DNA from: a virus
Taxonomy: Duplodnaviria; Heunggongvirae; Uroviricota; Caudoviricetes
Strand: one strand, 5' to 3'
Length of the DNA stretch: 50,082 nucleotides
IMG/VR virus record: IMGVR_UViG_2703718827_000002
Coordinates: 1-50,082 of that record
Below, piece after piece: positions 6,966 to 49,899 of this stretch. Below the pieces are notes generated by a model. The model had not been told where the DNA came from and did no database searches. It was given only the letters and a program-made list of their open reading frames with translations. A program made the position numbers and the translations under genes. Every line of letters begins with the position of its first letter. Within the stretch, counting starts at the first letter, position 1.

Positions 6966-7181
6966 ATGAATGACAGTATCCTGCTTACCAGTGACGTACT
7001 GGCTCGCTATAAGATTTCCCGGAGCACTCTGTATTTCTGGAGCACCCCGGAGCGAATGCCTGCTGGCTTCACCTGCCCTTTCCCCAAACCAACAATCCCC
7101 GGCAACCCAAAACGCTGGAGAGAGTCGGAGATCGTTTCGTGGGAAATGCAGGTCAACGCCTCTAAAGCTGATACCCAATAA
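6966..7181 (+). CDS. AlpA-family excisionase / phage regulatory protein
   Basis: 71 aa; LARYKISRSTLYFW helix-turn-helix typical of AlpA/Xis-like proteins; convergent with and overlapping the 3' end of the integrase. Confidence 0.6.
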   Translation: MNDSILLTSDVLARYKISRSTLYFWSTPERMPAGFTCPFPKPTIPGNPKRWRESEIVSWEMQVNASKADTQ

Positions 7182-8343
7182 TGCTCTGCAGGTGATTCTG
7201 CCAAATACCCAACCACTCGCGCTGGTCATCCATATAGTCGTGCAGGTTGTATCTGGCCATCACCCCACCCATCTGATGACCAAGCAGCTTTTCAATAACA
7301 TGCGGTGGCGCGCCAAGTTCTGACAACCTGGTTGCAACGGTGCGCCTCAGGTCATGCAGAGACCACTGTTTCATGTCTGTCTTTCTGATCACCTGCATGG
7401 AATAGGTCGAGACTAGGGCCTGAGTAGGTGGAATGTCTTCTTTATCTCGGAACTGAGCCGGTGTTAAAACGTGCTTAGTGACCGAACCTCTTTTATGCTC
7501 CTGAAGCAGCCTGATCGCCACTTCAGGCAATGCCCTCCTGATCGTCTTCCCTGTTTTGTAATCCTCAGCCGGTACCGTCCAGGTCTTTTCATTAAAGTTG
7601 TACCAGTCCCAGCGCGATTTCCTTATTTCTGCAGCCCTGCACCCAGTCAGGAGCATGAACCGTATAACAAGTTGCTGTGATGGAGGGAGCGCGAAAAGTG
7701 TATCCCAAACCACTTTGATCTCTTCGTCGGAGAGTCGCCTCTCCTTCATCTTCGCTGCAATACCAACGTCTGATCTGCGCAAGGATTCAAGCGGGTTGTT
7801 TTTAATTACCCCTCGGTTATGGCAGAACCGGAACGCGCGCTTCATTAATGACAGCATCTCACCAGTAATAACCGAACGCCCCATCTCGTCGAACACATCA
7901 AGCCAGTTAGCCTTGAACGTCTGATCAACCATCGCCCTGCCAATGCGCGGGCTAATGTGCTTCTGAAAGCTCCTGGTATTGGCATCGATTTTGATCAGAC
8001 CCTCGGGAATGCAGTAATGCTTTACCCAGTACTCATACGCCTGGTCAACCGTTAGCGCCTCTATCCTTTCTGCTTTCTCAACCAGAACCTTCTGGCGTGG
8101 ATCGTAACCCTCACTCAGCCAGGCGCGAAACTGCTGCCTGCGGTCTCTTGCCTGCGCTAATGAATAGGCTGGGTATTCACCTATACTGAGTTGCACCGGC
8201 TTACCCTGCCAGCGATAACGGTAGAAGAAAGTTACGCCACCAGTTATGCTTAACCTGACATTAAGCCCGTTTGAATCTGAGAGAACTTCCACACTCTCTC
8301 TGCGCTTACCAAGCGCCTTACGAAGTTTTGTATCTGTGAGCAT
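7162..8343 (-). CDS. int: Tyrosine integrase (P4-type)
   Basis: C-terminal catalytic region with HDLRRT...LLGH...Y; N-terminal MLTDTKLRKA typical of P4-like integrases; ATG at 8343 with AGGGG RBS (track start 8352 is GTG). Confidence 0.85.
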   Translation of the reverse strand: MLTDTKLRKALGKRRESVEVLSDSNGLNVRLSITGGVTFFYRYRWQGKPVQLSIGEYPAYSLAQARDRRQQFRAWLSEGYDPRQKVLVEKAERIEALTVDQAYEYWVKHYCIPEGLIKIDANTRSFQKHISPRIGRAMVDQTFKANWLDVFDEMGRSVITGEMLSLMKRAFRFCHNRGVIKNNPLESLRRSDVGIAAKMKERRLSDEEIKVVWDTLFALPPSQQLVIRFMLLTGCRAAEIRKSRWDWYNFNEKTWTVPAEDYKTGKTIRRALPEVAIRLLQEHKRGSVTKHVLTPAQFRDKEDIPPTQALVSTYSMQVIRKTDMKQWSLHDLRRTVATRLSELGAPPHVIEKLLGHQMGGVMARYNLHDYMDDQREWLGIWQNHLQSIIGYQL

Positions 8344-8645
8344 CGTGTACACCCCTGAGCCATGTACTCAGCAGTGTACACAAAACACGTAAATTGCAAC
8401 CATACAAAATAAAACACGTTAAAGAGTTATAAACAATGAAGTGAGTAACGGCGCGGTTTTGGCGGGAATAATTTTAAACGCAATAAAACACGATAAAGCA
8501 GAACTCGTTGAAGTATTATGCCTCAGGAAGATAAATCCTAACCAGACTGCCAGTCCTTCGGGGCTGGCGCTGTATCTCCTCTGTTCTCCTCAGGAAAATC
8601 ATAGTAGCATCGCGCCTGTGATTTTCCTTTTAAGTCGGTTTTACC

Positions 8646-9083: not shown

Positions 9084-9803
9084 TTACTGAATTTCGGTGG
9101 TGCCGTTAATTTTAAACAGGATATTCACCACAATCCCACTGCCTGGCTTACCCGGCTCATAACGCCATCTGCGCATCGCATTTTTCACCTCACGCTCAAA
9201 CATGTTCGCAGGCTTGGCTGAGAGGATTTGTACGTTATCCACGCGACCATCCGGCGTAACGTCAAATTTAACTTTAACCTGCCCTTCAATGCGCAATGCC
9301 TGTGCTCGTGCCGGATACTGCGGCTGATTACGGCTTAATGCGCGTGGTCCTGAAGCCACACTGGTAACCGGCTTGCTGGTTGCAGCCGTTGCTGTACTTG
9401 ATGTCAGGCGTGCCGGTGCCGTATTTTCAAACGGTGATGCCGGACGCGACTCTACGGGTTTGACATCGCGTTTTGGCTGCTCCTGTACCTTTTTCACCGG
9501 CTTCGGTTTTGGCTTAGGTTTCGGCTTCGGCTTTTCAATGACCACCGGTGCTTCTTTTGGCGGTTCGGGGATCGGCTCAGGTTCCGGTTCTGGCTCTACC
9601 ACCGGCTCCGGTGGCGGCTGAACGGCTTGTGGCGGTTCGAGATCAGCAGGCGTAACCATCGTGACAGAAATCGGCTGCGCAGGCGCAGGTAGTTCAATAA
9701 CCTGATGTACCGAGGTATAGAGCAGACCCGCCACAACAGCACCATGAATGCAGACCGAAAGTAACGTCGGCCAGGGGAAGCGGCGAGGTAAATCAAGGGT
9801 CAT
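9084..9803 (-). CDS. tonB: TonB energy-transducing protein
   Basis: MTLDLPRRFPWPTLLSV..., (EP)n and (KP)n repeats, C-terminal domain; 239 aa from ATG at 9803 (track ORF extends upstream to 9854). Confidence 0.9.
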   Translation of the reverse strand: MTLDLPRRFPWPTLLSVCIHGAVVAGLLYTSVHQVIELPAPAQPISVTMVTPADLEPPQAVQPPPEPVVEPEPEPEPIPEPPKEAPVVIEKPKPKPKPKPKPVKKVQEQPKRDVKPVESRPASPFENTAPARLTSSTATAATSKPVTSVASGPRALSRNQPQYPARAQALRIEGQVKVKFDVTPDGRVDNVQILSAKPANMFEREVKNAMRRWRYEPGKPGSGIVVNILFKINGTTEIQ

Positions 9804-10026
9804 TGAAGTCATAATCATTTCAGTAGAAAAACCAGGTCTCGATTTTAAATGCAAATAGCAATCATATTCAATAAGGCAAGACGATCAGGATCAGTGAAAA
9901 TGTCATTTTTGGCGTAATTACCCTTACTTTATGCATGGCCTTAACAAAGACATCATCTTTCCGTTGCAGATCTTCGCCCTTTCAAATAACGTACTTTACA
10001 ACTTTCCCGAACAAGGAGTTGTGCCC

Positions 10027-19605: not shown

Positions 19606-22600
19606 TTATGTGAGGCGTTGACTGGTGTTGAAGTTGTTGGTCAGTGCGTTGGAGAGTTTTCCTTTGCCGCTGGCGACGTCACTGACAGCCATGGCATAGC
19701 CCTGCTGCGCCCCGCGCTTGACTGCGGCCTCGAGCATGGCCAACTGCTGCTCAGTCGGATCCCCGTTAACCTGAATGACCGGGCTGTAACTGAACGCCCC
19801 GCCACCACCGCCCATATCGCGGTTACTGATGACGCGACCGTTATCGCCGGGGATCATGTACTGCTTGCCGGTGCTGGCCTGGTAAATCTCTGGCTTACCT
19901 TTCTCGCCGACCTGATACAGGCCACCGGCTGATACCGGTCCGCCATTGTACCGCGCTCCCGCTATTGAAAGGGCCTGCGCCATGCCAACTGTTGAAGCTA
20001 TTCCCGCCTGTGCCGGCACTGCATTCGCGCCAGCAGTTGCAAGAGATGTCATTGCGGCTGCAGGGGCCATGGAAGCGGCGATTAGCTGCCCTTGCGCAAT
20101 AGCCATTCCAGAAGCGGCGGTCATGCCAGCCTGACCCATAATTACAGACTTCAACCACTCAACCCCCATCTGAACAAAGGAGTTGATGACGCTGTTAAGT
20201 ACCGTCGAGCCTAGCGACCGCATAGCTTCGCTGACAGACATGCTGCCAGTGATTATGCCAGTGAGGGCGTTGGAGGCGTTTCCAGCAAATGAATCAAACG
20301 CCGCGGCAGCTACTTCATATCCTGCATTTTGTTGTCGCCATATCTCCCACTGCGCCGCTATGCGCTGTTGCTCGTACTGAGTGTTAGCGGCATTCATCAG
20401 CTCAAGTCCGCGCTGAGTAATCTGCCCCTTCTGCGATTCAAACTGCTGGATTAGAGCCAACTCCTGCGCGTGCTGGTTAGCCAGCTGTTGGACAGGGTCA
20501 ATCTGCCCCCGAGCTTCCTGCATGGGGCTTACAGTTTGCTGAGCGCGTATCTTAGCCAGATTAACCTGGTGCTGAGCCTCCAGTTGCTCACTGGTCTGAT
20601 TGTACTGCTGCTGAGTGATTTTTTTGGCGGCCAGTGCAGTTTGCAGATCTTTAACATCCTGCTGGTAAGACGCATTCTCTCTGGCTTCAGGGAGCAGTTT
20701 TTCTGCCGCAGCCTGGGCTTTGAGGGCATTAGCCGTATCCCATATTTCTCCACGGTATTTACCGGCAAGAGCAATTTGCTCTTGGGTGGCTCCCTTACCT
20801 AGTGATTGCTGAGCCTGTAATACTGCCTGCTCCCGGCTTAACTCCTGCGTTGAGCCAGCAGCGAGCTCTGATTGCTGGCGCAGATTTTCAAGTTTTTGGT
20901 TTACCGATTCCTGCTGGTTAGCAAGTTTCTTAGCCTCAGATTCCGCTTCCTTGGTGGCCTTTTTGTTATTTTGCTGCGCTTGTTGAGCATCGAATTCAGC
21001 TGCTGCTCTGTCACGAGCAAGGTTAACATCCGCCTCTGATCCACCGAGTTTCCTAATGTCCTGCTCAGCCCTTAATTGCGCTCGCTTCCTGTCATTAAGC
21101 TCGCTCTGAAGTGTTACCTGATCCTGTAGCTTATCCAGATACTCCTGAACATCTTTCGGGCGTTCAATCATGAGGCTGCTGGAGTTGAATTTGTCTTTTG
21201 CCTTGGCCGCAAAATTAATCATATCTCCCAACTTGCTCATCATGCCGGCAGCAATTCCCGCTTCCTGCCCATCCCTGCGCAGCAAATCGATACCTTGCTT
21301 CATCGTTCCGTTTAGCGTAGCGCGGCCAATGTTAATGGCGTTTTGGGTCTGACTCAGTCTGTTCTGGGCCTTCTCCAGCTCAAGGGTAGCTATAGCTAGG
21401 TTATCCTGTGCGCCGCTAAGCGCCTCGGCAGCCTGCCGCCCTCTCGTTGTATTCGTACCCCAGTTTGCAATTTCTCGCTGCTGTCGCTGGACAGCCGATG
21501 TCGCGTCATTGAATTCCTTTTGTGCGTCTGATACCGCGTCACTTAATTCAGGCAGGCTTTGGCTTAGCTTTCCTATCGTTGCCGCCAGCTCTGTATGCGA
21601 CATCGTCTGGAATTTTGAGCTCAGATCGTTAACGCTATCTGCAAGGGCATTAGCGTCATTCCTGGCCTCTTTTGCGCGCTGTGAAAAGTAAAGGATTGCA
21701 CTAGCAGCAAGCATTGCCGCTCCGGCAGGCCCACCAATTAACCCGAGAGCCCTGCTAGCCAGGCTGGCACCAGATGAGAGAGCCATTTGAGCAGCCCTGT
21801 TTGCCGCCAGTGCTCGATTATAATTATCAACCGCACCGGCAGCCGCAACCCTGGCAACGGACAAGCGCTGTTCAGCTGCCGCAGCGTTGGTTTCGCTGAT
21901 AGCAGTAAGGCGCATCATTTCTGCGAGCCTTATCTCATCTAAGGCCCGTTGTTTTGCGACCGCTGCAGCCCTGAGGTCTGCCGCTGCTTTATTCGCGGAA
22001 GCCTGAGCTGCTAATGATTCTTCTGCTGAAAGCATGCGTGATGCGGCAGCTGCTTTGATTTTAGCCGCAGTAGCCATAGTTAAGGCGCCGACATACCGAC
22101 TCCCAAGAATAGCCGCGGCACCAGTCAGCAACGCGCTCAGTCCGCCAATATTCTCACTGATGGTGACCACTGCATCACTAAAAATTGCCGCGCCTGTTTT
22201 AACCGTAGAATTTTCACCGAAGAACTTAGTGATGTTATTGCCAGCAACCTGAAGAGCCTGGCTGATAGTCGTAGTGGTGTTGGCAAATTCAGCACCGATT
22301 AAACTCCCCTGGGAAAGCAGACCGTTAACCACAACATCTGTCGTTAGCTTGCCCTGTGCCGCCATGTTGCGCATCTGGCCGATGCTGACCCCCATAGAGT
22401 CAGCAAGGGCTACGATAAGGCGGTTACCCTGCTCGTTTACAGAGTTGAATTCCTCGCCGCGTAAAGCTCCAGAAGCAAGGCCCTGAGATAGCTGAATAAT
22501 CGCGTTCTCGGCCTCTTGCGCCGTGGCACCTGATACAACGAACCCTTGGTTTATAATTGTGGTTAACTTCGCCAGATCATCTGCGCTGGTCCCGTACTGC

Positions 22601-22980
22601 CTGGTTGCCCTTTCTAGTCTTGCGTAGAGGGATGCCGTTGCATCTAAACTACTGCGAGTTTGCTGAGTAATGTTGAAAACCCGCTCGGTTACATCGGCAA
22701 GTTGTTCTGATGGGCGAATAGAGTTTGATAATTTATTGTTAACAGTAGCCCACGCATCAGCGTATTCAGCCACCTGCTGAACTGACAATGCCGCGGTGAG
22801 CGCAACCGCTACACGTGACAGACTCGACATTGAACGCTCAGTAGTATCAATTGAGCGCGTTGTTTTATCAAAGCCGCGCTCCATCAGATCAAGGCGCTGA
22901 TTAACGCGCTGCTGAGCAGTAAGTAGCCCGCGCACATCCATTTCAATGTCGTAATAAATACCGCCAGCGTTCTCAGCCAT
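19606..22980 (-). CDS. Tail tape measure protein
   Basis: 1124 aa, Ala/Gln-rich coiled-coil-like composition, Gly-rich C-terminal region, position between chaperone and tail tip genes. Confidence 0.85.
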   Translation of the reverse strand: MAENAGGIYYDIEMDVRGLLTAQQRVNQRLDLMERGFDKTTRSIDTTERSMSSLSRVAVALTAALSVQQVAEYADAWATVNNKLSNSIRPSEQLADVTERVFNITQQTRSSLDATASLYARLERATRQYGTSADDLAKLTTIINQGFVVSGATAQEAENAIIQLSQGLASGALRGEEFNSVNEQGNRLIVALADSMGVSIGQMRNMAAQGKLTTDVVVNGLLSQGSLIGAEFANTTTTISQALQVAGNNITKFFGENSTVKTGAAIFSDAVVTISENIGGLSALLTGAAAILGSRYVGALTMATAAKIKAAAASRMLSAEESLAAQASANKAAADLRAAAVAKQRALDEIRLAEMMRLTAISETNAAAAEQRLSVARVAAAGAVDNYNRALAANRAAQMALSSGASLASRALGLIGGPAGAAMLAASAILYFSQRAKEARNDANALADSVNDLSSKFQTMSHTELAATIGKLSQSLPELSDAVSDAQKEFNDATSAVQRQQREIANWGTNTTRGRQAAEALSGAQDNLAIATLELEKAQNRLSQTQNAINIGRATLNGTMKQGIDLLRRDGQEAGIAAGMMSKLGDMINFAAKAKDKFNSSSLMIERPKDVQEYLDKLQDQVTLQSELNDRKRAQLRAEQDIRKLGGSEADVNLARDRAAAEFDAQQAQQNNKKATKEAESEAKKLANQQESVNQKLENLRQQSELAAGSTQELSREQAVLQAQQSLGKGATQEQIALAGKYRGEIWDTANALKAQAAAEKLLPEARENASYQQDVKDLQTALAAKKITQQQYNQTSEQLEAQHQVNLAKIRAQQTVSPMQEARGQIDPVQQLANQHAQELALIQQFESQKGQITQRGLELMNAANTQYEQQRIAAQWEIWRQQNAGYEVAAAAFDSFAGNASNALTGIITGSMSVSEAMRSLGSTVLNSVINSFVQMGVEWLKSVIMGQAGMTAASGMAIAQGQLIAASMAPAAAMTSLATAGANAVPAQAGIASTVGMAQALSIAGARYNGGPVSAGGLYQVGEKGKPEIYQASTGKQYMIPGDNGRVISNRDMGGGGGAFSYSPVIQVNGDPTEQQLAMLEAAVKRGAQQGYAMAVSDVASGKGKLSNALTNNFNTSQRLT

Positions 22981-22995
22981 TTGCTATCTCCGGGC

Positions 22996-23020
22996 AATAA
23001 AAAACCCCGCCGGAGCGAGG
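22996..23020 (-). terminator. Terminator-like hairpin plus T-run immediately upstream of the tape measure start
   Basis: On - strand: CCTCGC-TCCG-GCGGGG (one G-U pair) followed by TTTTTT; same family as the 15128 and 32005 elements. Confidence 0.5.
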
Positions 23021-23039
23021 TCTATAACATGGAACTTGG

Positions 23040-23420
23040 TTAGTTTAGGAGGCCTGATTTAACTTCTGTATTTGAATTATTAAATAAGTAATTATCTACA
23101 ATATCGCCCTTAAACACGATTATAAGCTGCTTCATGTTGGTAGTAGCGCCGTTATCAAATAGTCCATAGATGGGAATAAATGCTTTCCCGCTGACCTGTG
23201 TGTTTGTGAAAACATAGTGCCACTGTTCTTTCCCATCACTGGAGATTGATACCCCAGTTGGATCTCCATATGCAGCCTTAACCTCTTGCTTCGTCGTCTT
23301 TCCTTTGATTATTTTACTCTGAATGCCAATCTGCGTTTCTTGCTCAATCGACTTATTGCCGCCAGAAGCACAACCGGCAAGTACAACCGCTATTGCTGCA
23401 ACCAATAGAACCTTTTTCAT
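23040..23420 (-). CDS. Lipoprotein with BamE (SmpA/OmlA)-like fold signature
   Basis: MKKVLLVAAIAVVLAGC lipobox; KQEVKAAYGDP...EQWHYVF resembles the BamE motif; ATG 23420 with GGGGA RBS (track start 23480). Confidence 0.6.
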   Translation of the reverse strand: MKKVLLVAAIAVVLAGCASGGNKSIEQETQIGIQSKIIKGKTTKQEVKAAYGDPTGVSISSDGKEQWHYVFTNTQVSGKAFIPIYGLFDNGATTNMKQLIIVFKGDIVDNYLFNNSNTEVKSGLLN

Positions 23421-23560
23421 ATCCCTATCCCCATCAGTAAATGATGCGGCAATCGTAGCAGAGGGGAAGCGATACGACAAAGCAACCTGTTCGCTTATCA
23501 GGATGTTCAGCGGTACGATAGCAAGGTAGCCTTGAAGCAGGCATCAACCAAGGAATCATC

Positions 23561-24034
23561 ATGGATAAGTTTGACCGTAAACTTCAGCGAGAAATACTAC
23601 AGGCTTGCGTAGATAGCTATCCAGCCGCACCTCTTCTCGAACAATTTAACCTTACGGAAGTAGCAGAATGTGCAGAAAGCAACATTCAGAAGCTATTAGC
23701 TAACATAAATTACCTGTGCGAACACGGACTAATTAAAAATAACAGCTCCATTATTCTTAAGGACCGCTCCATCCTCACCCGGATCACCGCAACAGCAAAA
23801 GGCATCGACTTCATGCTCAATGATGGTGGTCTATCAGCGATCCTGAACGTCCAGACTATAAAGCTTCATCGTGACTCAGTGGTCGTACTCGAAGACCTGA
23901 TCGCCATTTCAAACATGAACGACGAGCAGAAGGAAAAAGCCAAGTCGACTCTCGGCGAAATGTCGACGGAAGCCATTAAAACCGTGGTGCAAGCCGTGAC
24001 GACTGCAGGGTTATCAAAGCTGCTCGGGCAATGA
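23561..24034 (+). CDS. Hypothetical protein (157 aa), opposite strand to the late operon
   Basis: AAGGAA RBS; divergent from the lipoprotein gene, convergent with the Panacea operon; no family recognised. Confidence 0.5.
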   Translation: MDKFDRKLQREILQACVDSYPAAPLLEQFNLTEVAECAESNIQKLLANINYLCEHGLIKNNSSIILKDRSILTRITATAKGIDFMLNDGGLSAILNVQTIKLHRDSVVVLEDLIAISNMNDEQKEKAKSTLGEMSTEAIKTVVQAVTTAGLSKLLGQ

Positions 24035-24050
24035 AGCAACCCTTCAAAGC

Positions 24051-24078
24051 AAAAAAACCACCAACGGTGGGTTTTTGC
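24051..24078. terminator. Bidirectional rho-independent terminator
   Basis: AAAAAAACCACC-AACG-GTGGGTTTTT between convergent genes. Confidence 0.7.
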
Positions 24079-24531
24079 TTAGGTTCCTGTCAATCCATCA
24101 TCTGGCTCAGGCTGATCAATTAACTGAGCATTGGTGCAGTATCTTTCTTTGAACCTTATCATCTTCGGTTTTGCTTGTTCCGAAATGTCAAAACCAGACA
24201 GAATTCTGTCAAAAACAGCTTCAGCCATATCGTCATGAGTCGTAACTTCGCCAGCTGCGTGTTTTCTTTCTAAATTATCAATGCGCCAAATTACAGCTTC
24301 AGCATAAACGATATAGCTTGGATGTTGGATAAACCTGTGATCACCAGGTTGGAGAACACATGCGTCATCATGCGGCACGCCAGGCTTAATGCTTGACACA
24401 TTAACAACCAATATACAGTAACAGTCGTTAACTGGATAATAAACAGGATCGTTGCATATCACATGAAGATGATTGCATGGCCCACTTGGAGCCAAAACCG
24501 TTCCTTTTCGATAAGGTTGAAATGTGCTCAT
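24079..24531 (-). CDS. Hypothetical protein (150 aa), candidate effector/toxin partner of the Panacea gene
   Basis: ATG overlaps the Panacea stop (ATGA coupling); no family recognised; several Cys/His residues. Confidence 0.5.
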   Translation of the reverse strand: MSTFQPYRKGTVLAPSGPCNHLHVICNDPVYYPVNDCYCILVVNVSSIKPGVPHDDACVLQPGDHRFIQHPSYIVYAEAVIWRIDNLERKHAAGEVTTHDDMAEAVFDRILSGFDISEQAKPKMIRFKERYCTNAQLIDQPEPDDGLTGT

Positions 24532-25100
24532 GACAATTGAGAAGAAAACTCCTTAAGTTCTTGTGACTCACGCATACTCCTAAGTATATTCTCTACTTCT
24601 TCAGGAGTTTTCCCAGCATCGATAAATATTTCACGTACATCTATAAGAGTTCGTGAGCCATGCGGGTCATGCCACTCAGGGCAAACGTTTCTAAGATGAG
24701 TCATATCGCGCAATTCATATCTGTTCATATGCCCATATTGTGCATATATTTCATCCAAAATGCGGATATCTGCCCTGCTCAATTCATCGAAGACTTCATC
24801 AGCGTCCATCTCACGAGGGTCGGTTCGTAAGCAGACGTCATGATGATCGGTTTTTATCAAACGATACCAGTAGTCACCATCAATGTCAGCGCGACCACGA
24901 ATCAGATCCAGTGTAGTTGACATAACCGGACCGTGGGGCATTGAGTAAAGCTTGTCTTCACCCATCATGCGACCATGGCGAATCATTGACTGCCGGTTTG
25001 CCAAGTATAGCAGCTTCATAAGCTTCAGATATGCCATGCGCCCGCCGCGTTTAAGTAGCAGGTAAGCAGCCATCTGAGCCACTTTTTCTTCGCTAAACAT
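24528..25100 (-). CDS. Panacea-domain (DUF4065) protein, PanA/SocA-like antitoxin candidate
   Basis: N-terminal VAQMAAYLLLKRGGRMAYLKLMKLLYLANR...MPHGPV matches the DUF4065 signature; ATG 25100 with GAGG RBS (track start 25112 is TTG); AT-rich upstream region. Confidence 0.6.
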   Translation of the reverse strand: MFSEEKVAQMAAYLLLKRGGRMAYLKLMKLLYLANRQSMIRHGRMMGEDKLYSMPHGPVMSTTLDLIRGRADIDGDYWYRLIKTDHHDVCLRTDPREMDADEVFDELSRADIRILDEIYAQYGHMNRYELRDMTHLRNVCPEWHDPHGSRTLIDVREIFIDAGKTPEEVENILRSMRESQELKEFSSQLS

Positions 25101-25169
25101 ATTGAACCTCAATCACTTACAAAATACAGAACGGAAAATTGATGTATACATATCGTTTTATTGATTCTG

Positions 25170-25198
25170 AGTTTATTACCTCAAGGTCAATCCTTCAA
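25170..25198 (-). promoter_or_regulatory. Candidate sigma70 promoter for the Panacea operon
   Basis: On - strand: TTGAAG, 17-bp spacer, TAAACT, about 70 nt upstream of the ATG, within an AT-rich intergenic region. Confidence 0.3.
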
Positions 25199-25410
25199 CC
25201 TTTGGTTGAATCTAGCGCGTTCAAAATAGCCTTAAATGTCACTCAAAAAAGCACAAAATAGACGTGTACCAGGACACACCTCAAATCATCGCCTCTTGTA
25301 GCGCTTCTGGCTTCGTTTTAGAGGGGGTTAAATCGATCTCACATTTTGTGCGGTATGTGCCATCGATCACGCACAGTATCATTCTGACAATAAAATCACC
25401 CTTGAGTACT

Positions 25411-26109
25411 CTATCTCTCCTGCTCCATCATCGCCTGTCTGCGCTTACGGCGCGTAAAGTAGTCATCAGCTGCGTGATCGTACTCTTCGCGGGTGTACCC
25501 TTTCTGCTCAGGGTACTTAGCGATGAGCATTAGCTGAAACTCGGTCATCGTCAGTTGTCCGGCCTCTTCCTTGCTGATACCGAAGTGGTTCCGCGCTGCG
25601 ATGATGTAATCTGATGCCCGGAATTCAGATGTTGTATCACTGGATTCGTGCCGCTGGAGCTTTCTAATTTTCGCTTTACCGATGATGCCGTGCATCATCA
25701 GACTTTTGGCGACGATCACCATGCTTTCTGGCGGCATGGTGCCCGGGCGCCAGACGAAGCTACGCTTGCGTGATTTCCCGGGCTTCATCCAGCCAACCAG
25801 ATCGCCGATATCATCGTTACAGCACGCCGTAAGCACCGTATGCGCTGCCATGATGGCCTTGCGTGACAGGAGCCCGCTTTGCATAAACCTCAGGACACAA
25901 TCTGGAAAGCGGCTGTACTCATCGCGTATATAGGCCTCAGCTGCACGCTGTGCGAATGGTGTCGTCTCGTCATTGCACAGGTCATAGAACGCCTGAACGA
26001 TTTCAGCCGGATCGCCAATTCGCGACATGGCAAGCAGTGACGGGCGGAAGAAATAATCCCTGTCTCCGGCAGTAATGACGCATTCGCCAAACTCTTTAAC
26101 TGGTGTCAT
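25411..26109 (-). CDS. Putative tail assembly chaperone (G/GT position)
   Basis: Position between major tail and tape measure; N-terminal GDRDYFFRP resembles chaperone motif; single 232-aa ORF with no visible frameshift partner. Confidence 0.45.
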   Translation of the reverse strand: MTPVKEFGECVITAGDRDYFFRPSLLAMSRIGDPAEIVQAFYDLCNDETTPFAQRAAEAYIRDEYSRFPDCVLRFMQSGLLSRKAIMAAHTVLTACCNDDIGDLVGWMKPGKSRKRSFVWRPGTMPPESMVIVAKSLMMHGIIGKAKIRKLQRHESSDTTSEFRASDYIIAARNHFGISKEEAGQLTMTEFQLMLIAKYPEQKGYTREEYDHAADDYFTRRKRRQAMMEQER

Positions 26110-26159
26110 CTTTCCCCCATAAACAAAATCAAGGGCAGAAATCCTGCCCTTTGTTTTGC

Positions 26160-26912
26160 TTATGCTGTAACCGTTACCGTGTGAGTTGCGGTAAATGCGC
26201 CGTCGTCAGTAGTTACAGTGATCACCGCGGTGCCTGCAGTAGCGCCAGAAGGGGCGGATACTGTTACCGTATTACCTGAGAAGGCCACCGTAGCGCGCGC
26301 AGGCACGGAAGACGAAACAGTAAATACCTTGTCGTCCGCATCTGCTGGCGCAATGTTCACAGTGAAGGTTGTGCTTGAACCTGCCGCAATCGTGCTGGTT
26401 GTTGGCGTTACGGTCACGCCTGTAACGGGAATGCCATCATCAGCTTCAGTAATCTGGAAGGTGTTACCGTCAGCCAGTTTGAACTCAAAGCTGTATGTCA
26501 CGATCTCCTTCACACCACCGCCATCACTGGCGCCGGTCGGGACCATGTAGCCAATGTGGTAAAAGTCACCCCAATGGAAGCGCATCCAGACAGCAGGTTG
26601 ACGGCGGGCGCGAACTTCATCAGCGATATATTTCACGAATTGCTGAATGCCGAATTCATCAGTTCGGTCTTTAACTCGCACCTCTCCCTCAATGGAATAG
26701 GTGGGATCAAGACTGGCAATCAGGTTAGAACTGAATCCGCCGTTATCCGCATCTGATGTCAGCGCTTCGGGGCTCATATCCCAGGTTGCCGAAGTCGGCA
26801 GCCCCATAAGCTTCCAGTCCCCTTCTGCCGGAACCTGGTCAGCACATCCATACGCTAGCTCAAGCGTCTTAGCGCGACCGATAAGTTGTTCGTTATTGGA
26901 GCAGCCTTGCAT
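26160..26912 (-). CDS. Major tail protein with C-terminal Ig-like (Big_2-type) domain
   Basis: C-terminal Thr/Val/Ala-rich beta-sandwich-like segment typical of Ig-like decoration on major tail proteins; position. Confidence 0.7.
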   Translation of the reverse strand: MQGCSNNEQLIGRAKTLELAYGCADQVPAEGDWKLMGLPTSATWDMSPEALTSDADNGGFSSNLIASLDPTYSIEGEVRVKDRTDEFGIQQFVKYIADEVRARRQPAVWMRFHWGDFYHIGYMVPTGASDGGGVKEIVTYSFEFKLADGNTFQITEADDGIPVTGVTVTPTTSTIAAGSSTTFTVNIAPADADDKVFTVSSSVPARATVAFSGNTVTVSAPSGATAGTAVITVTTDDGAFTATHTVTVTA

Positions 26913-38639: not shown

Positions 38640-39130
38640 TTCTGGCCCCACTCGCAAACTTCGCGCTCAATCTCGCGCCGGGTTATCAGTCCCTTCCACT
38701 GCTTGCCACCGGCATACGTCCAGCGTTGCAGTTCTTTGCATGCCCCCGGCACGTCTCCGGCGTTCAGCTTCTTCAGCAGCGTCGAGCTGGCAAAAGCACC
38801 AGAGCCAACGTTATAGGTGAAGGAGTAAAGCGCGGCGCGGGTTGGCTCAGGAATGCGAACCTTGATCAGCGGGTCGATAGCATTTGCCACCTTTCGCAGA
38901 TCGGCCTTCAGCATGTTGTCGCACTCTTTGTCGGTGTATCGGTGACCGCGGCGAATGTCCGCTCCGGTGTGCCCATCGCAAACAGTCCAGACGCCGACCA
39001 CATCCTGATAGGCGTAATAGCGCCGTCCTTCCAGCCCATCGGCATTGCCCAGCATTACTGCAGCAATGGTGATGGCTCCGGATCCGCCAACAATGGCACC
39101 CACCAGCTTATTCCTCAACGTTGGGTTCAT
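38636..39130 (-). CDS. SAR endolysin (GH24 lysozyme)
   Basis: N-terminal Gly/Ala-rich signal-anchor-release helix followed by T4-lysozyme-like core ([16 protein letters not shown]). Confidence 0.8.
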
Positions 39131-39332
39131 CTCGGCTCCTGCTGCGGCGGTTGTCTTCGCGGATCTTGAAATAGAGATTCGTCAGATACGTCAGTACGGC
39201 AATGATGATACCCACCAGCACGCCGATAGCGTTCCACTGCTCGGGGCTGTAGGCATTAAGCATGCCGTTTAGGATGCTCCCGGCTGAAGCGCCATAGGCA
39301 GCACCAGTGGTTATTTTTTCCATGCGATACAT
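39108..39332 (-). CDS. Pinholin (S21-like) with dual start
   Basis: Resembles phage 21 S ([11 protein letters not shown]...[25 protein letters not shown]); Met1 and Met4 give a holin/antiholin dual-start motif. Confidence 0.8.
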
Positions 39333-39511: not shown

Positions 39512-39587
39512 TGGTGCTGATTGACGGAGTTGAACCGCCGACATCCTGCTTACAAGGCAGGCGCTCTACCTACTGAGCTAAATCAGC
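39512..39587 (-). tRNA. tRNA-Thr (anticodon TGT), phage-encoded
   Basis: Hand-folded cloverleaf: 7-bp acceptor stem GCTGATT/AATCAGC, D-arm GCTC/GAGC, anticodon arm CCTGC-CTTGTAA-GCAGG, T-arm GGCGG-TTCAACT-CCGTC, 3' ACCA; differs from recalled host tRNA-Thr. Confidence 0.8.
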
Positions 39588-39679: not shown

Positions 39680-40180
39680 TCATTGAAAAGCAAGCACGTT
39701 GTGAACATTTTTTGCAACTTTGTTCACATTATCGCGGCTGATAAAGGCATTTTGCAGCGGTTGATACAGGCAGAACAGTGCCGCGTTAAGTGTTTCCTTC
39801 ACCTCCCGGCGTATGGTGGATATGCTCGGGTGCTTATACTGATTCCCGCCACGCGTCTTCATCACTCGAGGTTTGCTCACAGCGTGCTGCCAGCTGGCGA
39901 TGCGGATCTCACTGGAGTTGCAGACGTAATAGGCGAAGACAACACGCCAGGCGTTCTCGTCGATATTTTTCAGGTAATGGCGCAGCACTGCGTCAATCAG
40001 CATACCGTCGTCGTCGCTACATACCGGGCGAGATGCCTGCTGCGGTTCGACGGTCGCCATAAACTTGGCAATCATGTTGATCATCGCCTTGTCTATCTTC
40101 CCGGTCTGCGACCATGCACCCCACAACTGGAGCCACTGATCAATCCACTGATGCTGCTCGTTGGTTAATTCCAGTTTCAT
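39680..40180 (-). CDS. Late-gene antiterminator Q
   Basis: LWGAW...SRPVCSDDDGMLID...AYYV motifs typical of Q-family antiterminators; position upstream of the lysis cassette. Confidence 0.7.
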   Translation of the reverse strand: MKLELTNEQHQWIDQWLQLWGAWSQTGKIDKAMINMIAKFMATVEPQQASRPVCSDDDGMLIDAVLRHYLKNIDENAWRVVFAYYVCNSSEIRIASWQHAVSKPRVMKTRGGNQYKHPSISTIRREVKETLNAALFCLYQPLQNAFISRDNVNKVAKNVHNVLAFQ

Positions 40181-48871: not shown

Positions 48872-49105
48872 TTAGGCCGCAGTATCACGCGGCGATGCGA
48901 ATACCAGGCTTTCTTTTAGGACCGGAGCCTGGCGGTGAAAATTCTTCGTGCCTTTCTCGATAGCAGATGCCATTTCTGGAGATGCCCGGCGATTTCCGTA
49001 GGCGATCTGGTCCAGGTAACCTGGCGTCGTGTTAGCCAACTTTGCGAGCTGCGCCCATTCGTCGGTAGTGGCGGCCTTGCGCCAGCGGTGTAGTTCAGTG
49101 CTCAT
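48872..49105 (-). CDS. Cro-like helix-turn-helix regulator (YdaS family)
   Basis: 77 aa, divergent from cI across the operator region. Confidence 0.65.
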   Translation of the reverse strand: MSTELHRWRKAATTDEWAQLAKLANTTPGYLDQIAYGNRRASPEMASAIEKGTKNFHRQAPVLKESLVFASPRDTAA

Positions 49106-49137
49106 TGGTGTCTCCGGGTGAGTCGTTTGATTTGGAG

Positions 49138-49204
49138 TTTAGCGTTATGCTAAATACTACGCAAGCATCATTTAGCAATTTGCACATTTATCATTTTGCT
49201 AAAA
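49138..49204. promoter_or_regulatory. OR-like operator region in the cI/cro divergent promoter
   Basis: Perfect 17-bp palindrome TTTAGCGTTATGCTAAA (49138-49154) plus two related imperfect sites (49171-49187, 49188-49204). Confidence 0.65.
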
Positions 49205-49221
49205 GCAGTAACAATGCAGGT

Positions 49222-49899
49222 ATGGAAAATAAAGAAATCAGAAAAGCCAACCTGGAAGCGCTGTACGAGAAGCGTCAGCACGAGTCTGGAATGACCAAAG
49301 CGCAGTTTGCCGAGCTCATCGAGACAAGTCCGGCTGCGCTTAGCCAGCTACTGGGACCAAACCCTCATCGCAATATCGGCGATAAGATGGCTCGCAAAAT
49401 TGAAACTGCGCTTGATCTGCCTTTTGGCTGGATGGATGTTTTACACGCCAGTGAAGAACCTTCGAACGTTGCATTTCGAGGACTGAACGAGACAAAAGGA
49501 AGTTATCCTGTAATCAGCTGGGTAAGCGCGGGGCAATGGATGGAAGCTGTAGAACCTTATCACCGAAGAGCGATAGATCGCTGGTATGACACGACTGTTG
49601 ACTGCTCAGAAGATTCATTCTGGCTGGACGTTAAAGGGGATTCTATGACCTCCCCGGCTGGACTGAGCATACCCGAGGGAGCAGCGATACTTGTTGATCC
49701 TGAAGTCGAGCCGCGCAACGGAAAGCTGGTTGTCGCGAAGCTAGAAGGCGATAACGAAGCGACCTTTAAGAAGCTTGTAATCGATGCCGGCAGACGCTTC
49801 CTAAAGCCCCTTAACCCCGCATATCCAATGCTAGAAATTAATGGAAACTGCAAAATCATCGGCGTTGTGGTTGATGCCAAAATACTAAACATCCCATAA
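49222..49899 (+). CDS. CI-type repressor with LexA-like S24 peptidase domain
   Basis: N-terminal HTH, C-terminal GDSM...KLV autocleavage signature; ATG at 49222 downstream of the operators (track start 49105). Confidence 0.85.
   Translation: MENKEIRKANLEALYEKRQHESGMTKAQFAELIETSPAALSQLLGPNPHRNIGDKMARKIETALDLPFGWMDVLHASEEPSNVAFRGLNETKGSYPVISWVSAGQWMEAVEPYHRRAIDRWYDTTVDCSEDSFWLDVKGDSMTSPAGLSIPEGAAILVDPEVEPRNGKLVVAKLEGDNEATFKKLVIDAGRRFLKPLNPAYPMLEINGNCKIIGVVVDAKILNIP

Follow-up and report, generated by a model that had tools for sequence, protein, structure and literature searches.

The 50,082-nucleotide viral DNA held in IMG/VR as record IMGVR_UViG_2703718827_000002 (Caudoviricetes; the window below means this whole stretch) is a lambdoid prophage that encodes an integrase (7162-8352), a cI-like repressor (49105-49899), DnaB, NinG and a Q-type antiterminator, with its late operon on the minus strand. 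Within this operon, four genes separate the gene for a DUF6246 protein from that for the tape measure protein. By comparing this region with related prophages we arrive at the view, to which we assign a probability of about 0.8, that it is an occupied, hypervariable moron slot of an ES18-type siphovirus tail module, filled in this prophage by three independent expression cassettes: a putative Panacea toxin-antitoxin pair (PanAT), an antisense gene for a predicted winged-helix protein of 157 residues, and a gene for a small BamE-like lipoprotein.

Anatomy and variability of the slot

The 2430 bp between the DUF6246 gene, a homologue of ES18 gene 17, and the tape measure gene contain four genes and intrinsic terminators (Table 1). 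An earlier reading of the window, made from the sequence alone, had described about 2.4 kb with four genes between 25411 and 22980 as an accessory island; the open reading frames (ORFs) lie where it placed them, and its calls for the border genes at 25411-26109 and 19606-22980 hold, both having Pfam and PHROG support. The G+C content of 22981-25410 is 0.436, against 0.532 in the tape measure gene, 0.538 in the DUF6246 gene, 0.527 in the whole window and 0.53-0.57 in the flanks, such that the region has a composition unlike that of its neighbors, as is expected of a moron. The AT-rich intergenic regions of the same reading shrink to a single one, upstream of PanAT (25101-25410), whereas the other spacers have a G+C of 0.455-0.51. 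The internal terminators that it proposed are present: terminator-like sites are enriched (11 versus 3.0 +/- 1.9 in shuffled sequences) and fall at the borders of the modules described below (26131-26151, a weak site at 25260-25281, 24058-24070 and 23002-23023). Those at 23002-23023 and 24058-24070 supply the factor-independent downstream terminators that typify morons.

Table 1. Positions of the slot features and neighboring genes in the window
Feature	Position	Strand	Properties
panA, predicted Panacea-domain antitoxin, 190 residues	24528-25100	-	PF13274 SocA_Panacea, E 3.6e-20, 73.4 bits versus cutoff 25.7
panT, putative toxin, 150 residues	24079-24531	-	predicted MazF/Kid/CcdB-type fold plus C-terminal helices
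PanAT upstream region	25101-25410	-	G+C 0.39; weak terminator-like hairpin 25260-25281; palindrome 25142-25151
Bidirectional intrinsic terminator between convergent panT and 157-residue genes	24058-24070		found on both strands in scan; -17.4 kcal/mol, z -2.8
157-residue gene, opposite to late operon	23561-24034	+	predicted N-terminal winged helix; phrog_3983, unknown function
Divergent intergenic part travelling with the 157-residue gene	23482-23560		promoter of the 157-residue gene presumed here
Predicted promoter/leader 'socket', 61 bp	23421-23481	-	-35 TTGTCG 23475-23480; TG 23459-23460; -10 TACGAT 23452-23457; ribosome-binding site GGGGATAGGGAT 23421-23432
Lipoprotein gene, 126 residues, BamE-like domain	23040-23420	-	LPAM_1 20.5 bits (cutoff 20); phrog_3135, unknown function
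Closing intrinsic terminator, 35 bp (hairpin 23002-23023)	22987-23021	-	7 nt upstream of tape measure ATG
ORFs as originally listed	24528-25112, 24079-24531, 23561-24034, 23040-23480	-, -, +, -	coordinates confirmed
DUF6246 gene (ES18 gp17 homologue), upstream border	25411-26109	-	PF19759 264.7 bits; phrog_791, unknown function
Tape measure gene, downstream border	19606-22980	-	PF20155 TMP_3 191.5 bits; phrog_1107 tape measure 1555 bits
Major tail gene	26160-26912	-	phrog_853, Big_2 domain
Q-type antiterminator gene	39680-40180	-	PF06530 Phage_antitermQ 76.1 bits

We fetched 80 IMG/VR loci coding for a DUF6246 protein and measured the gap between its gene and the next long ORF in 74 of these. 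The gap was filled in all 74 (554-5840 bp, median 2460 bp), and the ORFs found in it form 102 clusters, none of them universal; the smallest gaps contain one unrelated ORF each (a 190-residue ORF or a 128-residue lipoprotein). Thus the island is variable among relatives, and the same four genes were not seen as conserved tail components throughout them. The commonest cargo comprises KilA-N, Rha/ORF11CD3, Bro-N/P22_AR_C, P22_AR_N and Arc-like proteins, an XhlA-like protein and a DUF2335 membrane protein. Because the KilA-N, Rha, Bro-N/P22 antirepressor and Arc-like clusters are the commonest, the slot can be said to hold often an immI-like antirepressor set. Among named phages, the slot of Klebsiella phage vB_Kpn_RAH1 has an antirepressor gene, three hypothetical genes and the same lipoprotein as the window; that of ST13-OXA48phi12.5 has a diverged Panacea pair, the 157-residue gene and two other genes; in that of phage 2b LV-2017 a KilA-N gene is accompanied by 1.6 kb without annotation; and that of an E. 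coli prophage (strain 53) has a KilA-N gene, three more genes and, again, the lipoprotein of the window. In the GenBank annotation of ES18 (NC_006949), on which this statement is based, gp18, gp19 and gp20 between gp17 (DUF6246) and gp21 (tape measure) are each a 'possible moron', and putative terminators are annotated after genes 19 and 20. The sequence-only reading had regarded this position as unusual for accessory genes; the ES18 annotation and the cargo in every measured relative speak against this. It was right in taking the four genes as accessory rather than as tail components, given that most relatives lack them and carry other genes instead, that their composition is deviant and that terminators bracket them. 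An accessory gene inside the tail cluster is also known elsewhere, namely P-FimU, which Pseudomonas F10-like phages carry between their genes for tube and chaperone (PMC12952977).

Pairwise alignments with these relatives revealed sharp homology breakpoints at 23021, 23417-23420, 23481, 24036/24046, 25100-25112 and 25413-25417, by which the region consists, as judged from the sequence comparisons, of at least three independently assorting modules and not of the single inserted island formerly proposed. With RAH1 and E. coli strain 53, which of the cargo share only the lipoprotein, the alignment starts in the tape measure gene and stops at 23481; locus L083, which has PanAT and the 157-residue gene with a different last ORF, aligns from 23418 upward and again below 23021; and L034, which has the 157-residue gene only, aligns over 23417-24036. 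In L095, a lambdoid phage in which PanAT has the tape measure gene on one side and a gpM-like gene on the other, homology covers 24046-25112, i.e. the two ORFs and the bidirectional terminator, which thus travels with PanAT; in a third context the pair lies at the extreme prophage end beside early genes (L110). In relatives with other cargo, homology resumes upstream exactly at the DUF6246 stop codon (25413-25417). These junctions suggest that cargo would be exchanged between phages by recombination at conserved borders, namely the DUF6246 stop codon, the leader described below, the ATG and the terminator. A search for direct or inverted repeats flanking 22981-25410 gave none, and a transposon or integron-like insertion was rejected; a known RNA element in the slot spacers was dropped as a candidate after an Rfam search gave no family with a credible match.

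Separately, another conserved leader of about 100 nt stands before varied first-position cargo genes (KilA-N, Rha and another KilA-N-like family), directly past the terminator that follows the DUF6246 gene (e.g. L044 at about 9800-9930, and L084 upstream of 9931); it first became visible as a conserved pseudo-translation (…PLRMPAGCRCPSVGRFPVRQGSSLKG…).

The Panacea pair and the antisense winged-helix gene

By its sequence, the pair at the upstream end of the slot fits the computational description of the PanAT family, which was defined as a group of type II systems, with 88 clusters of toxins, by Kurata et al. 2022 (PMC8832971): panA codes for a Panacea (DUF4065) domain with a score far above the Pfam cutoff, and panT overlaps the panA stop codon with its own start by 4 nt (ATGA). 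The most likely start of panA is the ATG at 25100, preceded by GAGG 6 nt upstream, which gives 190 residues; an alternative TTG at 25112 would give 194. The lengths in NCBI, where the proteins have been deposited hundreds of times, agree with the corrected starts both of PanA (190 residues) and of the lipoprotein (126 residues), and the identical 190-residue PanA is found on 709 contigs under the names Panacea domain-containing or SocA family protein. The pair has cluster members in Klebsiella, Enterobacter, Citrobacter, Cronobacter and E. coli, and in K. aerogenes the accessions of its two genes are consecutive.

PanT has no match in Pfam, NCBIfam or PADLOC, and 39 members of its family lack any Pfam match at E <= 1, such that it does not belong by sequence to PemK/MazF; a search of the PDB with its profile likewise recovered no MazF at E <= 10. 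A sequence-level link to solved structures was sought by profile searches for both PanT and the 157-residue protein, and none was found. The predicted structure of PanT, by comparison, adopts an SH3-like barrel of the MazF/CcdB type, and its top structural matches are the toxins MazF, Kid, CcdB, ToxN and CptN. On the strength of this model we suggest that PanT may work like MazF without filing it as a member of MazF/PemK/Kid. The family comprises 46 homologues, most of them without a source name and all of the names shown belonging to Enterobacterales. Its alignment has 16 invariant positions (G10, H21, H23, C26, D28, P29, L41, C58, L60, G63, H65, F67, H70, G94, G113 and S117), among which H21, H23, C26, D28 and P29 form the motif H-x-H-x-x-C-x-D-P, joined by C58, H65 and H70; this pattern makes a metal site or a different chemistry possible.

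A search with the PanT alignment recovered 79 further viral loci, and wherever the DNA is present PanA lies immediately 5' of PanT with the same overlap; the pair is kept in 58 of the 79, and nearly all the others end at a contig edge just before panT. The antitoxin-first order is also the commonest among PanATs (943 versus 325), and two toxins neutralized by PanA, predicted by HHpred to be MazF/PemK-like and validated as blocking translation, belong to PanATs of P. moraviensis and B. ruminantium (Kurata et al. 2022, PMC8832971). Relative to these two systems, the pair in the window is alike in having a Panacea (DUF4065) antitoxin encoded first, tight coupling and a predicted MazF-like toxin fold, and its prophage location fits. 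It differs in that its toxin family is small (46 proteins) and lacks detectable PemK/MazF sequence similarity, and in that the toxin has extra C-terminal helices and the invariant histidine/cysteine set. We infer that the pair functions as a type II toxin-antitoxin operon, in which the Panacea antitoxin, translationally coupled to a MazF-fold toxin that is probably a ribonuclease, would neutralize the toxin by direct binding; its use is probably in abortive-infection defense or prophage retention. That the pair is instead no toxin-antitoxin system, with the 150-residue protein a non-toxic nucleic-acid- or metal-binding protein and PanA having another role, strikes us as unlikely. The absence of a sequence match to any toxin family, the suggestion of metal binding in the histidine/cysteine set and the report that some predicted PanA partners are spurious (Kurata et al. 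2022, PMC8832971) would agree with it, but strict adjacency and the 4-nt overlap are kept across 69-100% identity and three genomic contexts, the gene order is the one prevailing in PanATs, and the best structural matches are all toxins of such systems.

The region upstream of the pair (25101-25410) is conserved only in loci that have PanAT in this slot (L083, L089, L090 and L021) and not where PanAT sits elsewhere (L095 and L110). It contains a perfect 10-bp palindrome, ATGTATACAT, at 25142-25151, 42 nt upstream of the panA start, which could be a candidate operator for autoregulation.

The 157-residue gene faces the late operon. Its product scores below the Pfam threshold for DUF2513/YjcQ (13.5 bits versus 29.6), and among 49 of its homologues DUF2513 was matched in 20 at E <= 1 (best E 1.6e-5) and YjcQ in 13; the winged-helix fold of the N-terminal domain is itself supported. 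The C-terminal half is highly conserved and predicted to be helical in a low-confidence model. There are 208 homologues, and a search with the family alignment yielded 79 viral loci, in 76 of which the gene is antisense to its long neighbors. An ORF of at least 600 residues starts on the other strand 0.5-2.2 kb away (median 716 bp) in 55 of the 72 loci with enough sequence, including phages with no tail-gene match to the window. The fold and the divergent arrangement point to a local DNA-binding regulator that would be made in the lysogen, from a gene transcribed against the late operon.

The intergenic DNA beside the gene travels with it, as homology with L034 and L056 covers 23417-24036 or 23417-23601, and that with L001 and L006, which lack the gene, stops at 23481. 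Within 23482-23560 there are three copies of CCTTG/CAAGG (…TTCCTTGG…TTCAAGGCTACCTTGC…), which could be candidate operator half-sites for the winged-helix protein.

These distributions bear on whether the four genes arrived as one island by a single insertion and cooperate, for instance with the 157-residue protein as a third, regulatory component of PanAT, a proposition we consider distinctly unlikely. The whole block is indeed inherited together in close relatives, as in L089, in which the four proteins are 100/100/99/98% identical, a single alignment extends over 3758 bp at 91.8% and the same arrangement is kept beside a major tail protein that is only 42% identical. In most tail-slot copies, too, PanAT is followed by the 157-residue gene, an order seen even in the diverged ST13-OXA48phi12.5 (44/39/60% identity) and outside the DUF6246 context (L101). 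Yet more than 49 loci have PanAT without the 157-residue gene, and the pair also sits elsewhere in genomes; all but 7 of the 79 loci with that gene lack a PanA or PanT match, and it has other partner genes alongside in further loci; L083 and L021 keep both PanAT and the 157-residue gene with the lipoprotein ORF swapped for others; in RAH1, E. coli strain 53 and a contractile-tail prophage the lipoprotein is the only one of the four present; and flanking repeats, as noted, were not found. As most loci hold the 157-residue gene without PanAT, and most PanAT loci are without this gene, its product is not a PanAT component.

In L095, a 131-residue ORF with a hydrophobic, signal-peptide-like N-terminus lies between the tape measure gene and PanAT (L095:4635-5030), and this stretch resembles another multi-cassette cargo site.

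The lipoprotein gene and its leader-terminator socket

We moved the start of the lipoprotein ORF to the ATG at 23420 (MKKVLLVAAIAVVLAGC, with the lipobox LAGC). The resulting protein of 126 residues has a signal peptide with a lipobox cysteine (MKKVLLVAAIAVVLAG|C; LPAM_1 match in Table 1) and probably resides in the outer membrane, since alanine occupies position +2 after the cysteine to be lipid-modified. A search with the BamE equivalog of NCBIfam reached 16 bits against a cutoff of 93, which is no sign of orthology; as far as its sequence goes, the protein is a BamE-like lipoprotein and not BamE, and the database name 'BamE' overstates the relationship. The ORF and its terminator, without the leader, are 99% identical in E. 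coli contractile-tail prophages (L087:4001-4440, NZ_CP149850, and L088:4001-4440, NZ_CP151050), in which they have the tube gene on one side and a 1959-bp lytic-transglycosylase/tape-measure-like gene on the other, with a KilA-N gene as a neighbor. Therefore cargo moves between analogous positions of different tail types, and the contractile-tail prophages have the same kind of cargo slot.

Phage lipoproteins such as Cor (phi80/N15/HK022) and Llp (T5) exclude superinfecting phages. The gene in the window resembles theirs in being a small lipoprotein gene that sits as a moron in or beside tail genes, and the terminator sequence of the window also follows cor in HK225. It differs in showing no real homology, as the match to Cor in PHROGs spans the signal peptide only (E 9.4e-5, with no stretch passing alone), and in that its mature part resembles a BamE/SmpA_OmlA domain. 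We regard it as a candidate lysogenic-conversion or exclusion factor that probably alters the lysogen's envelope, e.g. to exclude superinfecting phages.

The ORF is enclosed by two conserved elements. Upstream, a 61-bp leader (23421-23481) ends exactly at the lipoprotein ATG; it is 95-100% identical in 39 loci, each time abutting an ATG, and its exact 41-nt core is present in 57 IMG/VR contigs, where, in the loci examined, it precedes 13 unrelated ORF families, about 10 of which begin with a signal peptide or lipobox by our own reading of the N-termini. A search with the ribosome-binding site GGGGATAGGGAT followed by ATG gave 19 leader variants. Across their alignment three bases of the -10 element (TAnnnT) and most of the Shine-Dalgarno (SD)/ATG region are invariant, the G of the upstream TG is nearly so, and TTGTCG is seen 17 nt upstream in many, a pattern that fits a sigma-70 promoter of the extended -10 type, which would leave a 5' untranslated region of about 25 nt. 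Downstream, the 35-bp terminator lies about 20-30 nt past the stop codon in many leader cassettes. Of the 71 loci with a match, most have it or a close variant directly before the tape measure gene, and some carry it only elsewhere or as a second copy. It is annotated as 'terminator' in HK225 (after cor) and mEp390, and so is the corresponding sequence in ES18 (after gp20).

A copy of this terminator with 93% identity recurs 3' of the tape measure gene in many related loci (e.g. L001:176-204 and L007:16825-16853), at the site where ES18 has another 'possible moron' (gp22) and L095 carries PanAT.

We also considered a translation switch in which pairing with the SD would silence late transcripts and leave those from the leader's own promoter active. 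In the fold of the 61-nt leader a C-rich stretch of the promoter spacer does pair with the ribosome-binding site (-20.1 kcal/mol, z -2.4), and most of the 19 variants are alike. With shuffled upstream sequence as a control, the mean unpaired probability of the SD was 0.27 observed against 0.32 shuffled, with none of the 19 variants at p <= 0.05; composition alone explains the pairing, and the switch was rejected.

In the window the lipoprotein ORF would have before it a fixed leader with a sigma-70 promoter and ribosome-binding site, and behind it a fixed terminator. A tentative and rather doubtful extension of this is that the last position of the slot is a standardized expression socket shared by siphovirus-type and contractile-tail prophages of Enterobacterales, in which unrelated, mostly exported ORFs are swapped at the start codon and the terminator, amounting to a plug-in system for lysogenic conversion and exclusion. 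Its elements would then be the conserved sigma-70 promoter, the very strong ribosome-binding site (GGGGATAGGGAT-ATG) and the common terminator. In most loci the winged-helix gene lies at a distance of roughly one gene from that for the tape measure protein, nearly always in antisense, and its product could be a local regulator of the socket.

Late transcription, related systems and significance

Downstream of the Q-type antiterminator gene, on the same strand, follow genes for a holin, a lysozyme and Rz and candidate terminase genes, the Pfam matches of the last being weak and sub-threshold. In lambdoid phages, Q-modified RNA polymerase ignores intrinsic terminators, which is said to be, after Juhala et al. 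in 2000, the accepted explanation for terminator-bounded morons inside late operons. By analogy, Q would permit read-through of the internal terminators in the window, such that during lytic growth the modified polymerase would pass them and the tail genes would still be expressed. A tRNA-Thr gene (anticodon TGT; 39512-39587, minus strand) separates the Q antiterminator gene from the holin gene (39108-39332).

Several observations weigh against the overall interpretation as a moron slot with three cassettes. In none of the 74 measured relatives are the DUF6246 and tape measure genes adjacent (the smallest gap, 554 bp, still has one ORF), contrary to what the sequence-only reading would have led one to expect, and an insertion of extra DNA between genes that are adjacent elsewhere is strictly not shown. 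A generic promoter scan gave no enrichment (6 versus 5.8) and put no site between genes on the strands where one is needed, and no promoter for panAT or the 157-residue gene was identified. Within the divergent promoter region formerly proposed at 23421-23560, comparison of the leaders lends support to a promoter in 23421-23481; this predicted leader promoter, with 8 of 12 consensus positions plus TG, falls below the threshold of the scan. PanT is without a sequence-level link to MazF/PemK, and its invariant histidines and cysteines differ from the catalytic residues of MazF and Kid. On the mature lipoprotein the Pfam BamE domain reaches 22.6 bits, just below its cutoff of 23.2. Finally, the PADLOC defense models had no match at E <= 0.1 to the four slot proteins or the DUF6246 protein, and a known defense system was dropped as a candidate.

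The DUF6246 gene had been labelled a tail chaperone gene. Its position between the major tail and tape measure genes agrees with this and suggests a role in tail assembly, but Pfam and PHROGs list the family as of unknown function and no conserved frameshift accompanies it: no +1/-1 extension after the stop codon was found among relatives, in which the downstream frames vary with the cargo, and a gpGT-like extension into 25101-25410 was rejected as the reading frames are not conserved. For ES18, whose gp17 is recorded as a member of the DUF6246 family, the annotation goes no further than a 'possible +1 frameshift'. The four genes might still be taken for conserved tail-assembly or virion components, e.g. 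a chaperone partner or minor tail protein, as they lie inside the tail cluster, no relative is without DNA at the slot, and a chaperone function could hide in the gap given a DUF6246 protein of no proven function and without a gpG/GT-like frameshift partner; this is very improbable, with no ORF family common to all gaps and single unrelated ORFs filling the smallest, cargo that includes antirepressors, Arc-like repressors and a toxin-antitoxin pair, one gene on the opposite strand, and a G+C content 10 points below that of the flanks.

The moron slot that we favor has several known counterparts. The moron concept reportedly goes back to Juhala et al. in 2000, for HK97 and HK022. As in that concept and in ES18, the window combines a candidate promoter, ORF and terminator with a deviant composition inside a presumably Q-dependent late operon. 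The ES18 genes for gp18-20 occupy the same position, bordered by the genes for gp17 (DUF6246) and gp21 (tape measure), with a related closing terminator (86-91% over about 55-66 nt) and a related SD/start region (83% over 48 nt), whereas their cargo is unrelated (a DUF4041 protein and two small ORFs) and the window has three cassettes, one of them antisense. The immI region of P22 (mnt-arc-ant) likewise lies inside the late operon, and the likeness extends to non-structural genes, with promoters of their own that are presumed in the window, an antisense gene and, in the relatives' slots, the very frequent Arc-like, P22 antirepressor, Bro-N, KilA-N and Rha genes; the copy in the window differs in being without an antirepressor module. 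P-FimU of the Pseudomonas F10-like phages (PMC12952977) is comparable as a defense-type accessory gene in the tail cluster, between the tube and chaperone genes, and differs in host, protein and exact position.

Thus, every element in the region is of a known kind, be it the moron slot, the PanAT system, the winged-helix protein or the small lipoprotein. What goes beyond existing annotation is how diverse the slot is, a fixed socket of predicted promoter, SD and terminator whose junctions fall at the start codon, the predicted MazF fold of a PanT family that is an orphan in sequence, and the positional habit of the 157-residue family. For annotation, a break in the tail operon at this point in ES18-like prophages of Klebsiella, E. 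coli and Salmonella is a cargo slot and not an anomaly, and the database name of the slot lipoprotein is misleading. With its 102 ORF clusters across 74 loci, the slot offers a compact catalogue of prophage accessory genes in clinically important Enterobacterales, and the conserved leader and terminator, through the exact 41-nt string, give a simple handle for harvesting candidate exclusion or conversion genes. PanT adds a sequence-orphan family with a predicted MazF fold to the partners of Panacea antitoxins.

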